Source: a virus (Duplodnaviria; Heunggongvirae; Uroviricota; Caudoviricetes). From it: a stretch of 4,003 bases of DNA. The stretch is from the IMG/VR virus record IMGVR_UViG_2534682255_000016, one strand, 5' to 3'. The notes under the pieces are model-generated. The model ran no database searches. It was not told the DNA's origin and worked only from the letters and a program-made list of their open reading frames with translations. Made by a program: the position numbers and the translations under genes. Of this stretch, positions 1-4,003 are shown piece after piece; the stretch's first letter is position 1, and every line of letters starts with the position of its first letter.

Positions 1-391
1 AGCGCAGAAAATGCAGTCCGCCTCCGTCCAGAAAGGTGTATTCATGGGGACGGAAGCCCACGGACAGCCCCCTGACCAGCCCGGTCTTAATGGCCGCCCA
101 GACCTCATCCAGCCGGGCAGCCAGTTGCGACGGCATATCCGGTACGGGCTTCACCAGTGTTGCCGTGATTTCCAGCCCTTCGCTGACCCGGCGCACCGTA
201 CACTGCCCCACCGGGCGGGAATGGTCATGCTGCCAGAGAAACGGGATCGCACTGCCAAACTCCGCGCCCTCCGGCTCCAGGATGTCACCATCCCGATCCG
301 GAGAAGGCGTTGACGCAATCCCGGTGATCACCCGTTCATCCTCACTGAAGGATTTCACCGTCAGCAGGGAACAGGCCCGTTTAAGAGTCAC
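1..391 (-). CDS. HK97-family prohead (head maturation) protease, Peptidase S78/U35-like; N-terminal ~130 codons only, continues past the window start
   Basis: Hand translation of the minus strand from GTG at 391..389 gives MTLKRACSLLTVKSFSEDERVITGIASTPSPDRDGDILEPEGAEFGSAIPFLWQHDHSRPVGQCTVRRVSEGLEITATLVKPVPDMPSQLAARLDEVWAAIKTGLVRGLSVGFRPHEYTFLDGGGLHFLR with no stop to position 1. The motifs DRDGDI, LWQHD..PVG and GLSVGF match the prohead protease signature as I remember it. AGGAGG at 402..397 sits 5 nt upstream of the GTG. This ORF is absent from the supplied track (no ATG, runs off the edge). The plus-strand ORFs 11..313 and 36..404 are antisense to it. Confidence 0.75.
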   Translation of the reverse strand, partial: MTLKRACSLLTVKSFSEDERVITGIASTPSPDRDGDILEPEGAEFGSAIPFLWQHDHSRPVGQCTVRRVSEGLEITATLVKPVPDMPSQLAARLDEVWAAIKTGLVRGLSVGFRPHEYTFLDGGGLHFLR

Positions 392-404
392 ATCAGCCTC
401 CTGA

Positions 405-429
405 AAATAAAAAAACCGCCGCAGCGGTT
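405..429 (-). terminator. Weak intrinsic-terminator-like hairpin plus T-tract between terminase large subunit and protease
   Basis: Plus-strand 414..429 aaccgc-cgca-gcggtt forms a 6-bp stem with a 4-nt loop. On the minus strand it is followed immediately by TTTTTTTATTTT (complement of 405..413 and beyond). It lies 26 nt downstream of the TerL stop (455..457). The stem is short, so this may only be a pause or partial terminator. Confidence 0.35.
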
Positions 430-454
430 CATGATGGTTACAGTGTGAACAGGG

Positions 455-2116
455 TTATATGAAAAAAACCGCATATTCTTTCTTTTTCGGTTCCGGGTTA
501 AGGGACATCAGGGAGACCGCATTGAACAGCGCCATCAGCGGGTCAATTTTTCCCCGTCCACTGGCCTGTTTGGTGATAAGAATGGCGTTACCTTTAGGCT
601 CCACCCGGGCATTGCCGACACACCAGGCCATCAGGGGCTGGTCACCATGCACCAGCACCCCTTCAGCCAGTTTGCGCTCGGTGGTTTTAATGGCCCCGCC
701 CAGTTTCCAGCCCTGGCTTATCCCCACCACAATTCCGTCGGGGATCCCGGCTTCCGCCAGTGAATCCAGAATCTGCCCCACACCTGACGGGTCAATACCG
801 ATATGATCCAGTAACTCAGCCTCATGAATACGACGCACATACTCCGCCACTTCCGCCGTGTCATCCCCGACCCGACGGACAATCGTCATGTCTCCACAGG
901 CCACAAAATCCTGAAAACGGGATGCCTCACTCTTCCGTCTGACCACCGCGGTTTCATGCGCCCAGGCATGGCCCCAGCCCAGCCATTCGCGGGTCTCCCG
1001 GTCACGCCCAATCACATACATCCCCAGCAGATCATCCAGCCCTCCGCCGTCAATCCCCACCGTCACCACATCAGCACGACGCAGGATATCGTCCAGGCTG
1101 ATACAACGGCCCTGCTCTTCCCAGAAATCAGCCCCCGCCCAGCGGTCAGAGCGCAGGGCAAGACCAATTTCCACATTGGCGTGTTTTGACATGAACCCCC
1201 GGAATGTCTCTTCACCGGCTTCCCGGGCTTTACGGTACTCCCGGTACAGAAAAGCCTCATCCACCGAATAACCGAGATTCGGATTGACCATGGCGAGGTT
1301 TTCCATCAGCAGGTGAGCCCCGCTTTCCACCATTTCAGGAGGGTGTTCAAATATCACCGGCAGAAAATGCGGATCATGAATTTTGCCGTCACGGACATCC
1401 CGGGCGTACTGCAGTTTCTGTCTGAACACCCCGGCTGGCGGCTCATTCGACTGGGTGGTCGTATACACCACAAACCCTTCCGGGCGGGAGGCAAGGCCGC
1501 CTATGGCTTCACGTAACATGTCCTCCGCTTTGTACTGCTTGCCAAATAACCACAGTTCATCAATCAGCGTCCCCACGGACTTGATACCGGATACCGTATT
1601 CGGATCGGCAGCCACCACCTTAAGGGTGGTGTCCGTCACCCTGTGGGTGATGGTCCGGATATGTGTCTGCACCTGACAGAGGTCATCCAGATCATCGTCC
1701 CGTCGTACCATATCCCTGGCAGGGTTGAAGGCGTTAGCCGCCACCTCCACGGTCGGGGCCAGAATGGTGTAGCCCGCCGCCTGCCGCCAGTTCAGTAACA
1801 GCGCCGTCATCATGATCCCCGCGGCCAGCGTGGACTTACTGTTTTTCTTGGGGATAAGGATAAACACTTCCTTGATATGGCGAACACCGGTCTGCGCATC
1901 GTAGGAGCCAAACAGGGCCGCCACCAGGTCAAACACCCACGGTGCACAGGACTCCCCGAATGTCGGGCTACCCGGTGCATCCACAATTCGCAGTTGTTTA
2001 AAAATCGCCAGGGCATGTGCAGCCTGGTCCGGATAAATCGGAGCCGGAATAATCGACAGCCCCTTTTTCAGGCGCTCTGCCCAGTCCGGACATGCCGTGC
2101 TCCATACAGGTATCAT
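455..2116 (-). CDS. terL: Phage terminase large subunit (TerL), Terminase_1/HK97-like family
   Basis: 553-aa ORF. The N-terminal half has a P-loop-like ILIPKKNSKSTLAAGI (compare PRKNGKST in this family). The C-terminal half has a nuclease-domain-like VVTVGIDGGGLDDLLGMYVIGR. Size is typical for TerL. ATG at 2116..2114 is preceded by GAGGAAAG and overlaps the TerS stop as ATGA. Confidence 0.9.
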   Translation of the reverse strand: MIPVWSTACPDWAERLKKGLSIIPAPIYPDQAAHALAIFKQLRIVDAPGSPTFGESCAPWVFDLVAALFGSYDAQTGVRHIKEVFILIPKKNSKSTLAAGIMMTALLLNWRQAAGYTILAPTVEVAANAFNPARDMVRRDDDLDDLCQVQTHIRTITHRVTDTTLKVVAADPNTVSGIKSVGTLIDELWLFGKQYKAEDMLREAIGGLASRPEGFVVYTTTQSNEPPAGVFRQKLQYARDVRDGKIHDPHFLPVIFEHPPEMVESGAHLLMENLAMVNPNLGYSVDEAFLYREYRKAREAGEETFRGFMSKHANVEIGLALRSDRWAGADFWEEQGRCISLDDILRRADVVTVGIDGGGLDDLLGMYVIGRDRETREWLGWGHAWAHETAVVRRKSEASRFQDFVACGDMTIVRRVGDDTAEVAEYVRRIHEAELLDHIGIDPSGVGQILDSLAEAGIPDGIVVGISQGWKLGGAIKTTERKLAEGVLVHGDQPLMAWCVGNARVEPKGNAILITKQASGRGKIDPLMALFNAVSLMSLNPEPKKKEYAVFFI

Positions 2117-2676
2117 CCGCTTTCCTCATTCTGGTTATTCACCACCAGCCGGGGAGGTGGTGGCACCGCAAAACGGTTAGCCGCTTTTTTCGCGGCATCA
2201 CCTTTTGCCGATTTTTTACCGGCATCGCCTTTTTTATGGTGTGTGAACTGCGCCAGTCGCCAGGCCGCATCCAGTGCCAGTTTCGGGTCAATTATCAGGT
2301 TTTCCACCAGGATCTGCCCCATCGCTTTCACCGGATCGGGAAGACCATCCTCCATATATTCAATACCATGAGATATCACCGCGGGCGGAGGCATCTCCGG
2401 ATTTTTTTCGTCCGGCTGTGGTATTGCAGCCACCTCACGGCGACGGGGTTTATCCTCCTGCTCTGATTTTTTCTGCCGGTAAACAGGAACCTCATCCACC
2501 TCCACCGTCTCGCATTGTTTACGGGCTATAAACGCAAGCACCTCAGGATCTTTTGCCAGCTGCGAGCCTTTAACCCTGGCGGTCTTCGCCGAATAACCGG
2601 CGGCAATGGCTGACGCTGTTTTGTTTTTCCCGGACATGAGCGCCAGCGCAAATTTTCGTTTTTGCGTTGTCAGCAC
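2113..2676 (-). CDS. terS: Phage terminase small subunit (TerS), P27/Terminase_2-like family
   Basis: 187-aa ORF. The N-terminus LTTQKRKFALALMSGKNKTASAIAAGYSAKTARVKGSQL matches the conserved helix-turn-helix region of P27-type small terminase subunits (..KQ..F..EYL...N.TQAAI.AGYS.KTA). The start codon is GTG (2676..2674), checked by hand, with a strong SD GGGAGGAGG at 2687..2679. It sits immediately upstream of TerL and overlaps it by 4 nt. The C-terminus is K/A/G-rich followed by PPPP. Confidence 0.85.
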   Translation of the reverse strand: MLTTQKRKFALALMSGKNKTASAIAAGYSAKTARVKGSQLAKDPEVLAFIARKQCETVEVDEVPVYRQKKSEQEDKPRRREVAAIPQPDEKNPEMPPPAVISHGIEYMEDGLPDPVKAMGQILVENLIIDPKLALDAAWRLAQFTHHKKGDAGKKSAKGDAAKKAANRFAVPPPPRLVVNNQNEESG

Positions 2677-2965
2677 AGCCTCCTCCCGGGTCCAGAACGC
2701 ACTCAGCCGGGTATGGTTCAGCCCATTTTTCCCGGCGTCTCATGCCGCAAATGTTAACTGCTGCCTGGTTAACATTTGCTGAAAAAGCCTGTTAACATTT
2801 TTTCCGCACAACAAACTGAATAATAAAGATAAAAACCGCAAAAATGCCCGGGCAGCCAGTTAACATGTTAACTGCCCTGAAACGGGAATTTTTTCTCTGC
2901 GTGAGAGGGGGCGCGGTGTCCAGGGCGATCGTTTTTTTTCGCCGGATGATCCCCCCCGGGTCTGG
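2677..2965. other. Candidate cos region (cosB-like repeat cluster plus GC-rich cosN candidate) between HNH and TerS
   Basis: 289-bp non-coding gap lying between an HNH endonuclease gene and the small terminase gene, which is where cos sits in HK97-like phages. It contains five GTTAAC-core palindromic repeats (2749..2875), an A-tract-rich stretch (2811..2845) and a GC-rich block with homopolymer runs (about 2895..2960). This is a functional inference; the nick site is not identified. Confidence 0.4.
2749..2875. repeat. Cluster of five GTTAAC-core palindromic repeats (AAATGTTAAC / GTTAACATTT / ATGTTAACTGC variants)
   Basis: GTTAAC occurs at 2753..2758, 2768..2773, 2791..2796, 2859..2864 and 2867..2872. 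I found no other GTTAAC in the 4003-bp window. AAATGTTAAC (2749..2758) and GTTAACATTT (2768..2777, 2791..2800) are inverted copies of each other. ATGTTAACTGC is repeated exactly at 2751..2761 and 2865..2875. CAGTTAACATGTTAACTG at 2857..2874 is an 18-bp perfect palindrome. Confidence 0.8.
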
Positions 2966-3331
2966 TCACAGGCCAGTGATTCCGTCGGCCCTGAGCGTGC
3001 CATCAGGAAGCTCAGGCAACGTCGGATCAGGCATACCACTCGCCGCTTCACTCGCTGACTTCTGGCGATGGCATTCAGTACAGAGGGTCCAGAGGTTCGT
3101 CTCCTCATTACCACCACCGAACTGAAGTGCAATGCGGTGATCGAGTTCACTGTCACAAAGGTCAACCACACGACCACAGAGACAACAGTGTCCGGCATCC
3201 CTCCGCCAGATACGACGTTTGAGGGAAACCCGGGCACTGCCACTGACACGACGCTGTTCCCCCCTCAGGACATTTATCCGCCGGGTGTTCAGAGTTTTGA
3301 TTCTGCCCGGTAACGTACGAAGCACAGCCAT
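2966..3331 (-). CDS. HNH endonuclease (phage packaging-associated HNH, zinc-binding)
   Basis: 121-aa ORF with the HNH motif: HCCLCG (C-x2-C), ELDHRIAL (catalytic D-H), NEETNLWTLCTECHRQK (N...C-x2-C-H). ATG at 3331..3329 is preceded by GAGGA 7 nt upstream. Its position immediately upstream of TerS is typical of HK97-like cos phages. Confidence 0.85.
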   Translation of the reverse strand: MAVLRTLPGRIKTLNTRRINVLRGEQRRVSGSARVSLKRRIWRRDAGHCCLCGRVVDLCDSELDHRIALQFGGGNEETNLWTLCTECHRQKSASEAASGMPDPTLPELPDGTLRADGITGL

Positions 3332-3372
3332 GTAAAATCCTCGCCATATAGCTTGTCACCAGAGGAAAGAAA

Positions 3373-3597
3373 ATGTCATCGAAAAACCGGCCCCGCAGAA
3401 CAACAACCCGCAACATCCGATTTCCAAACCAGATGATTGAACAAATTAACATCGCTCTTGATCAGAAAGGTTCAGGAAATTTTTCAGCGTGGGTTATTGA
3501 AGCCTGCAGAAGAAGATTAATTAATGAAAAACATGCTCAATTTGTACCCAACAAAGACAAACACGACCAGAGCACCTGTTCAGACAGGTTTACTTAA
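3373..3597 (+). CDS. Small ribbon-helix-helix-like DNA-binding protein, resembling the YlcI/DUF3950 family of lambdoid prophages (family recalled from memory, not verified)
   Basis: 74-aa ORF with a basic N-terminus (KNRPRRTTTR), then a predicted beta-strand RNIRFPNQMI and two helices EQINIALDQKG / NFSAWVIEACRRRL, the usual RHH arrangement. SD AGAGGA lies 7 nt upstream of the ATG. Two 60-nt stretches hand-counted in 3421..3540 are about 37% GC, clearly lower than the terminase genes. A hairpin terminator follows 19 nt after the stop. Confidence 0.7.
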   Translation: MSSKNRPRRTTTRNIRFPNQMIEQINIALDQKGSGNFSAWVIEACRRRLINEKHAQFVPNKDKHDQSTCSDRFT

Positions 3598-3615
3598 ACG
3601 ACTTATATATGACAC

Positions 3616-3642
3616 AAAAAGCGACCACTAAAGTCGCTTTTT
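3616..3642. terminator. Bidirectional intrinsic terminator between convergent genes (RHH-like on plus, PerC-like on minus)
   Basis: AAAAAGCGAC (3616..3625), loop CACTAAA, GTCGCTTTTT (3633..3642): a 5-bp GC core that extends to 10 bp with the A/T flanks. There is a T-run after the hairpin on both strands. It sits between the stop at 3595..3597 (plus gene) and the stop at 3679..3681 (minus gene). Confidence 0.55.
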
Positions 3643-3678
3643 CTTATGGTAACAGGCAATAACGCTCTCAGATATTTT

Positions 3679-3993
3679 TTAGCATTTTTTTGACCGCGCG
3701 TTTCCGGACGTATTCTGTTCTCCTGTCCCTTTATATCGTCGGAATACCCGCCGCTCTTCAAATCCCATTCCCAACTCAGAATGTAGTCTGTTGACCGCTT
3801 GTTTTATTTCGGTCAGGTTCATCGGTGAAACCGGAGTCCGGCGCGCCTTACGCAAACACTCTGCTCGTTTCTGTGCCGCCACTTTTCTTTTCTGGTCATC
3901 ACTTAGCTGTACCATCACTTTTGCCCATCGTTCAGCTGCTCTCCGGTACAGTCCTTTTTTCTCCAGACATTCTGCCAGGTGATCATGTAGCAT
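3679..3993 (-). CDS. PerC-family (Pch-like) transcriptional regulator, prophage-borne
   Basis: 104-aa ORF. The N-terminal motif LAECLEKKGLYRRAAERWAKVM matches the PerC-family signature (..AE.LE.KG.WRRAA.RW..VM) as I recall it from PerC/Pch proteins. ATG at 3993..3991 is preceded by GAGG with a 6-nt spacer. Only 3 codons lie upstream before the window edge, so a longer N-terminus cannot be excluded. Confidence 0.65.
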   Translation of the reverse strand: MLHDHLAECLEKKGLYRRAAERWAKVMVQLSDDQKRKVAAQKRAECLRKARRTPVSPMNLTEIKQAVNRLHSELGMGFEERRVFRRYKGTGEQNTSGNARSKKC

Positions 3994-4003
3994 AAGTGAC
4001 CTC

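Follow-up and report, generated by a model that had tools for sequence, protein, structure and literature searches.

The group 1 pch genes are master switches of attaching-and-effacing virulence in EHEC. In K-12, a ler::lacZ fusion on the chromosome is activated 4-fold or more by PchA, PchB or PchC, but little by PchD and PchE (PMC5931665). The group 1 genes, each a 315-bp gene encoding a 104-aa protein, are told apart by nucleotides 16, 172 and 183, and pchC is induced approximately 8-fold after SOS/prophage induction in the O157:H7 strain PA20 (PMC5931665). Activation of LEE1 by Pch depends wholly on silencing by H-NS/StpA/Hha/YdgT; Pch cuts H-NS binding at LEE1 both in vivo and in vitro, the latter with a reconstituted complex, and co-operates with Ler at the other LEE promoters (PMC4764244). 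Virulence requires pchABC, with LrhA activating pchA and pchB, and butyrate inducing pchA via Lrp/LeuO (PMC4456613).

The effect of related proteins on the LEE is varied. Expression of the LEE in EPEC is PerC-dependent only conditionally, whereas that of EHEC depends on Pch (PMC4764244), and EcCIMP1_025, a PICI-encoded PerC-like protein, represses LEE1 (PMC11773190). Membership in the PerC family alone is insufficient to infer LEE activation, as relatives can be neutral or repressive. A further group of small regulators, the ANR proteins, are smaller than 10 kDa, are composed of approximately 60-70 aa and contain three alpha-helices (PMC5570504).

Here we describe a pch locus at one end of a 4,003-nt stretch of DNA, referred to below as the window, which is the entire 4003-bp draft contig AOEO01000043.1 (GCA_000335455.2) and stops 10 nt short of the pch start codon. 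The original prediction for this DNA was a prophage-borne PerC/Pch-family regulator, carried as accessory cargo next to the packaging genes.

Identification of the pch gene

The minus-strand open reading frame identified in the ORF list is intact, has an ATG start and 104 codons, and spans exactly positions 3679-3993. Its product is matched by the Pfam PerC model (PF06069) with an E-value of 2.2e-44 and a score of 150.1 bits, the gathering score being 22.6, and the match covers essentially the whole model, with protein residues 1-89 aligned to model positions 1-89 of 90. The corresponding PHROG is phrog_994 (E 2e-45). All twelve residues of the PerC motif (D4, A7, L10, E11, G14, R17, R18, A19, A20, R22, W23 and C46), defined as the nearly invariant columns of a 76-sequence alignment of the PerC family, are present in the window protein.

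Comparison with the Sakai proteins identifies the gene more precisely, as the window protein is 100% identical to PchC (ECs_2737), 99% identical to PchB and 98% identical to PchA. The window gene and Sakai pchA, pchB and pchC differ at nucleotides 16, 172 and 183 only, which places the gene in group 1. The window allele reads C/A/C at these three positions, encodes exactly the PchC protein, and is separated from Sakai pchC by a single synonymous change at nucleotide 183. It is the residue-for-residue identity to PchC, and not membership in the PerC family, that settles the function of the window gene.

The PerC HMM search and the alignment to PchA/B/C, which had been suggested as checks of the original prediction, thus both bear out a prophage-borne PerC/Pch-family regulator. 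The accompanying term "PerC-like" is right about the family but should not be read as indicating a new gene, since the protein is the known PchC and the matching DNA is labeled "PerC family transcriptional regulator" by RefSeq in hundreds of genomes. The feature is a pchC allele, one of the virulence regulator genes already known and characterized by experiment, and its prophage surroundings are likewise known and common. We conclude that the open reading frame is almost certainly a group 1 pch gene (PchC variant) and that a lambdoid prophage of Shiga-toxin/EHEC-type E. coli carries it as a moron-like cassette.

A chance reading frame at positions 3679-3993 is ruled out by the identity of the minus-strand product to a characterized protein, and the plus-strand open reading frames at 3791-3982 and 3825-3995 were rejected as real genes on the same grounds. 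A sequence search of the PDB with Pch returned nothing meaningful.

Signals around the pch gene

The original prediction had given the gene its own ribosome-binding site, and this can be read directly from the letters as a Shine-Dalgarno-like GAGG at positions 4000-4003 on the minus strand, with a 6-nt spacer before the pch ATG. The surrounding region, GAGGTCACTTATG, is the same in Sakai pchA and pchC, and Sakai pchB has GAGGTTACTTATG.

A terminator belonging to pch had also been proposed. A symmetrical hairpin of the form A5-GCGAC-(7 nt loop)-GTCGC-T5 is found at positions 3616-3642 and is identical in Sakai pchA/B/C. It lies 36 nt beyond the pch stop codon and 18 nt beyond the stop codon of the convergent gene ylcI, and RNA folding gave z-scores relative to shuffled sequences of -2.1 for the minus strand and -3.2 for the plus strand. 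A simple consensus terminator scan of positions 2650-4003 called no terminator; it probably missed this hairpin because the A and T runs pair with each other, which gives a longer stem. Judged from its sequence, the hairpin looks like a shared, bidirectional terminator-like element and is a candidate intrinsic terminator. A terminator-like structure is therefore present as proposed, although it is common to pch and ylcI and not exclusive to pch.

Since the contig ends 10 nt upstream of the ATG, the pch promoter lies outside the window. In promoter scans, promoter-like sites were no more numerous than in shuffled sequences, both in the window and in the homologous stretch upstream of pch in contig AETX01000176.1, and we therefore do not claim a promoter. 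No RNA family was detected in the window with Rfam.

One contig break interrupts the capsid gene and the other lies 10 nt before pch. These positions would fit an assembly that collapsed where several lambdoid prophages of the host share repeated sequences.

Neighboring genes in the window

The remainder of the window is mostly occupied by a packaging module on the minus strand. At its far end is the 5' end of a prohead protease/major capsid fusion gene (2-403), cut by the contig end and matched by phrog_617 (E 1.9e-58), phrog_80 and HK97 proheadase; the matching capsid gene in the O157:H7 strain AC-5 is annotated as a 1938-bp major capsid protein. It is followed by the TerL gene (455-2116; Pfam TerL_ATPase and TerL_nuclease, phrog_9 E 3.3e-146), the TerS gene (2113-2676; Pfam Terminase_2 E 1.8e-8, phrog_641 E 8.8e-68) and an HNH endonuclease gene (2966-3331; Pfam HNH E 1.3e-6, phrog_589 E 1.4e-38). 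The terS and terL genes overlap by 4 nt (2113-2116) in an ATGA-type coupling.

The prophage type to which this module belongs can be seen in strain AC-5 (7454-11116), where the protease/major-capsid fusion directly follows terL and the portal gene is located further downstream; this differs from the usual order terL-portal-protease-capsid. The portal gene is frameshifted in strain AC-5.

Between the HNH gene and pch, on the plus strand, is a gene of the ylcI/ynfO family (3373-3597) encoding a 74-aa protein with a DUF3950 domain (Pfam E 9.9e-20; NCBIfam YlcI_YnfO_N). The original prediction had described the neighbor of pch as a low-GC gene, in agreement with the composition observed: GC content is 40.9% in ylcI, 48.9% in pch and 53-62% in the packaging genes. 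That neighbor had further been labeled RHH; a permissive Pfam scan of YlcI gave DUF3950 only, and there was no PDB match by sequence, so that the label found no support.

The spacer between the HNH and terS genes contains five GTTAACAT octamers in both orientations (2751-2872), compared with 0.07 expected, and none of 200 shuffled sequences reached five. It also contains a 12-nt perfect inverted repeat (2747-2758 and 2768-2779) and a palindrome (2857-2874). From its sequence, the GTTAACAT cluster may represent a candidate terminase recognition or cos-proximal region of an HK97-like packaging module.

Prophage context and the exchangeable pch module

The gene order beyond the window was obtained from two longer relatives, the O157:H7 strain AC-5 (96.7% identity over the whole window) and contig AETX01000176.1 (95.4%). 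In these, the order is holin, lysozyme, an Rz-like gene, a spacer of approximately 466 bp, pch, ylcI on the opposite strand, HNH, TerS, TerL and capsid. The lysis genes of both relatives are upstream of pch on the same strand, and no terminator-like site was found on the minus strand between them and pch. A position after the lysis genes and before the packaging genes, as originally predicted from the window, is thus seen in relatives that extend past it, and the same position is found for the pch genes of Sakai Sp4, Sp11 and Sp14.

Homology breakpoints delimit a swappable pch module of approximately 960 bp, of which the part inside the window covers positions 3508-4003. Positions 1-3507 are also found, at 95-97% identity, in phage YYZ-2008 and in Stx-converting phages, which lack pch. 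In YYZ-2008, which is otherwise collinear, the 961-bp pch segment (12507-13467 in strain AC-5) is replaced by an unrelated segment of 465 bp (7508-7972), and the proposal that the gene is accessory cargo finds support in this replacement. The left breakpoint falls inside ylcI, at approximately codon 46, just past the DUF3950 domain, so that the C-terminal tail of YlcI differs between backbones with and without pch. On its right side the module runs past the end of the window and stops at the 3' end of the Rz-like gene.

Additional breakpoints are provided by the Sakai prophages. In Sp11 and Sp14 homology runs from the start of ylcI (3373) to position 4003, and the neighboring terminase is of lambda type. 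In Sp4 homology starts at window position 3516, right where an IS629/IS1203 copy ends, and we therefore consider that the insertion sequence truncated ylcI and parted pchA from the packaging genes in this prophage. The IS629/IS1203 copy occupies 32131-33203 of the Sakai Sp4 record, and pchA is at 33366-33680. The homology with Sp4, Sp11 and Sp14, together with the differing terminases, indicates that pch, accompanied by the whole of ylcI or a part of it, forms a mobile cassette, which moves between prophage backbones with different packaging modules.

Distribution of group 1 pch genes

Of 5426 complete E. coli genomes, 673 contain DNA matching the 406 bp at the pch end of the window (99.8% identity, with at least 99% required), with a median of 3 copies, and the HNH-ylcI-pch arrangement is found in 261 complete genomes. 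The exact PchC protein is on record in at least 1000 contigs. The best matches to the whole window are from O157:H7 and O26:H11 strains, which are LEE-positive EHEC serotypes. A pch gene on the contig therefore marks its origin as a lambdoid prophage of an EHEC/STEC-like strain; it adds one more copy and allele, and changes nothing of what is known about the gene.

A tblastn search of 50,697 deposited phage records (E ≤ 1e-5) detected PchC only in OR845833.1, a 1570-bp fragment. With a single phage record carrying PchC, we interpret group 1 pch as a feature of resident EHEC prophages. It seems confined to resident, largely non-Stx prophages, even though Stx phages commonly have the packaging module that flanks it.

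A few plasmids of isolates from pigs and milk also carry near-identical pch copies. Separately, the conjugative Salmonella Muenchen plasmid pLG26p2 carries a PerC-family gene (1462-1785) with hha (2339-2545) two genes downstream. As hha encodes an H-NS co-repressor, this pairing is suggestive of a link between PerC-like proteins and the H-NS system outside E. coli.

Proposed function and mechanism

Activation of ler and displacement of H-NS are attributed to the window protein by analogy with the literature on identical or 98%-identical proteins. According to this proposal, the pch product, a small, all-helical protein with a basic tail, would associate with the LEE1 (ler) promoter region and with other H-NS-silenced, horizontally acquired loci. 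There it would lower the occupancy of H-NS, StpA and Hha, leading to de-repression of ler; Ler, aided by Pch, would in turn de-silence the remainder of the LEE type III secretion island as well as non-LEE effector genes.

The gene itself is most likely transcribed from its own upstream region of approximately 466 bp, outside the window, and transcription would end at the hairpin shared with ylcI. Late-operon read-through upon prophage induction probably adds to its expression, because pch is on the same strand as the lysis genes and directly follows them, with no minus-strand terminator-like site in between.

How Pch displaces H-NS is less clear than the outcome. Displacement in vitro was obtained with PchA-containing cell extracts, not with purified protein, and in the same work Pch is described as having no homology with DNA-binding proteins already known (PMC4764244). 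For these reasons, and because its predicted fold is interaction-like (see below), direct DNA binding by Pch is less secure than the genetic outcome.

Predicted structure of Pch and relation to the ANR family

A single-sequence AlphaFold model of Pch was poor (pLDDT 50.4) and was superseded by a model based on the alignment of 76 sequences, with pLDDT 83.9 overall and 95-98 over residues 1-50. This model has predicted helices at residues 5-13, 16-29 and 33-50, a fourth at 60-73, and then a basic tail of low confidence. The predicted fold resembles helical hairpins involved in protein interactions and not a DNA-binding domain. With Foldseek, the model had no significant match in either PDB or BFVD; the weak PDB neighbors are hairpins of the TPR/MIT type. 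An ANR-annotated Aeromonas phage protein superposes on the Pch model with 0.6 Å over 40 columns.

The ANR family also emerges from profile comparisons. The window protein itself scores 13.6 bits against the NCBIfam ANR model (NF033650; cutoff 32) with an E-value of 0.046, and differs from ANR proteins in size (less than 10 kDa, approximately 60-70 aa, three helices), having 104 aa, a fourth helix and the basic tail. For six divergent plasmid-encoded PerC-family proteins, ANR is the top or only match, in one register, with E-values from 3.3e-4 to 0.046. We extended the comparison to the family as a whole using an exhaustive phmmer search of 1.84 billion representative sequences, which yielded 84 PerC-family proteins; 76 were kept, all of which pass the Pfam PerC model. 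The ANR model is matched by 70 of these 76 at E ≤ 0.1, with a best E-value of 2.2e-8, whereas no other family is matched by more than two members. Several members of the PerC family reach 27-31.6 bits on the ANR model, just below its cutoff of 32.

In the reverse direction, an HMM built from the 76 PerC-family sequences scores all six ANR proteins tested, with P-values from 3e-5 to 6e-3, and the number of shuffled sequences reaching the observed score was 0, 0, 1, 7, 18 and 114 out of 2000 for the six proteins. Other comparisons gave less. An hhalign comparison of PerC with an ANR alignment that was thin and confined to Escherichia (E. coli and E. albertii) was weak, with P 0.06 and then 0.014; pairwise BLASTP of Aar and PchC produced no alignment; and the ANR proteins were not matched by the Pfam PerC model. 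On account of these three results we treat the ANR link as a lead and not as membership.

An ANR resemblance was noted in passing for one PICI PerC-like protein in 2025 (PMC11773190). We found no account in the literature of a family-wide relation between PerC and ANR or of its implication for PchABC. The observations suggest, as a possibility that we put forward tentatively, that the N-terminal approximately 50 residues of PerC/Pch are a divergent ANR-type module, that the activators PerC and PchA/B/C and the repressors Aar, Rnr and EcCIMP1_025, all acting on one H-NS/Ler virulence circuit, form one superfamily, and that anti-silencing by Pch proceeds at least partly via contacts with H-NS-family proteins or other partners, rather than by conventional activation through DNA binding. 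Such relatedness could help explain how a protein without a recognizable DNA-binding fold counters H-NS.

An alternative keeps the same gene and outcome but has Pch acting mainly by protein contacts, through an ANR-like three-helix module that binds H-NS, StpA, Ler or another partner, and not by sequence-reading DNA binding. It draws on the ANR matches of 70 of the 76 PerC-family representatives, on the shuffle-controlled PerC HMM scores of six out of six ANR proteins, and on the structural data, namely the confident AlphaFold2 three-helix N-domain, its weak neighbors among TPR/MIT-type interaction modules and the superposition of the ANR-annotated phage protein (0.6 Å over 40 columns); ANR proteins, furthermore, bind H-NS and Ler. 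It has to be weighed against the reports that PchA neither co-precipitates with H-NS nor binds Ler (Fukui et al., unpublished observations) and that ChIP puts Pch on DNA at specific loci (Fukui et al.), as well as the weak hhalign result (P 0.014), the lack of a significant structural match and the failure of ANR proteins to match Pfam PerC. Taken together, we regard a mechanism working mainly through protein contacts as rather unlikely.

Activity of the window copy

We infer that the window copy is expressed and that its host carries the LEE. The gene could instead be intact but idle in this host, either because the strain lacks the LEE or because the copy is silent, and would then be hitch-hiking prophage cargo. 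Compatible with an idle gene are the position of the promoter outside the window, the near-identical copies on a few plasmids of pig and milk isolates, and the redundancy of group 1 copies, with a median of three per genome. However, the coding sequence is clearly conserved, with one synonymous change relative to Sakai pchC, the closest relatives over the whole window are O157:H7 and O26:H11 strains, and pchC is expressed and inducible in the O157:H7 strain PA20. We therefore consider an idle gene improbable and favor an active group 1 pch gene.

A neutral or repressive effect on the LEE, as for PchD, PchE and the PICI-encoded PerC-like proteins including EcCIMP1_025, is extremely unlikely: whether a protein activates or represses cannot be read from the family, given that ler hardly responds to PchD and PchE and that EcCIMP1_025 silences LEE1, but the window protein is not a distant member and is identical to PchC, an activator of ler::lacZ.

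Comparison with known systems

The closest counterparts of the window gene are the Sakai genes for PchC (ECs_2737, Sp14), PchB (ECs_2182, Sp11) and PchA (ECs_1091, Sp4), whose products have 104 aa like the window protein. They share with it the ribosome-binding region, where pchB is one base off after the GAGG, and an 81-nt downstream stretch that includes the hairpin. They too follow the lysis genes of a lambdoid prophage, with ylcI linked in Sp11 and Sp14. The difference lies in the packaging side, as the window cassette adjoins HNH, HK97-type TerS/TerL and a protease-capsid fusion, whereas the Sakai cassette adjoins a lambda-type terminase.

EPEC PerC, encoded by perABC on EAF-type plasmids such as pEC404/03-1 of O119:H6, belongs to the same Pfam family and has the same LEE1 target. 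For this comparison PerC was taken from the true per locus, downstream of perA. It is 48% identical to the window protein over residues 2-88, with the common motif A-x2-LE-x2-G-x-YRRAA-x-RW. Unlike the window protein, PerC is plasmid-borne and encoded downstream of the AraC-type gene perA, and at 89 aa it is without the basic C-terminal tail. The window contains no AraC-type gene.

PchD and PchE of Sakai, YfdN of K-12 and EcCIMP1_025 are also PerC-family proteins, likened here to the window protein by their description in the literature; PchD and PchE show little or no ler activation, unlike PchC.

The ANR family, including Aar of EAEC and Rnr of EPEC and Citrobacter rodentium, likewise comprises small helical regulators that are encoded on mobile elements and act in H-NS/Ler/AraC circuitry. 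Their likeness to Pch is at the profile level and concerns Pch residues approximately 5-54, which form the predicted three-helix domain. In contrast to Pch, ANR proteins are negative regulators that bind AraC-type activators and H-NS, with no reported DNA binding. Finally, Ler, an H-NS paralogue, was, like Pch, acquired horizontally and acts as an anti-silencer, lifting the repression of the LEE and of effector genes by H-NS, but the two proteins are unrelated, as Ler has an H-NS-type DNA-binding domain that is absent from Pch.
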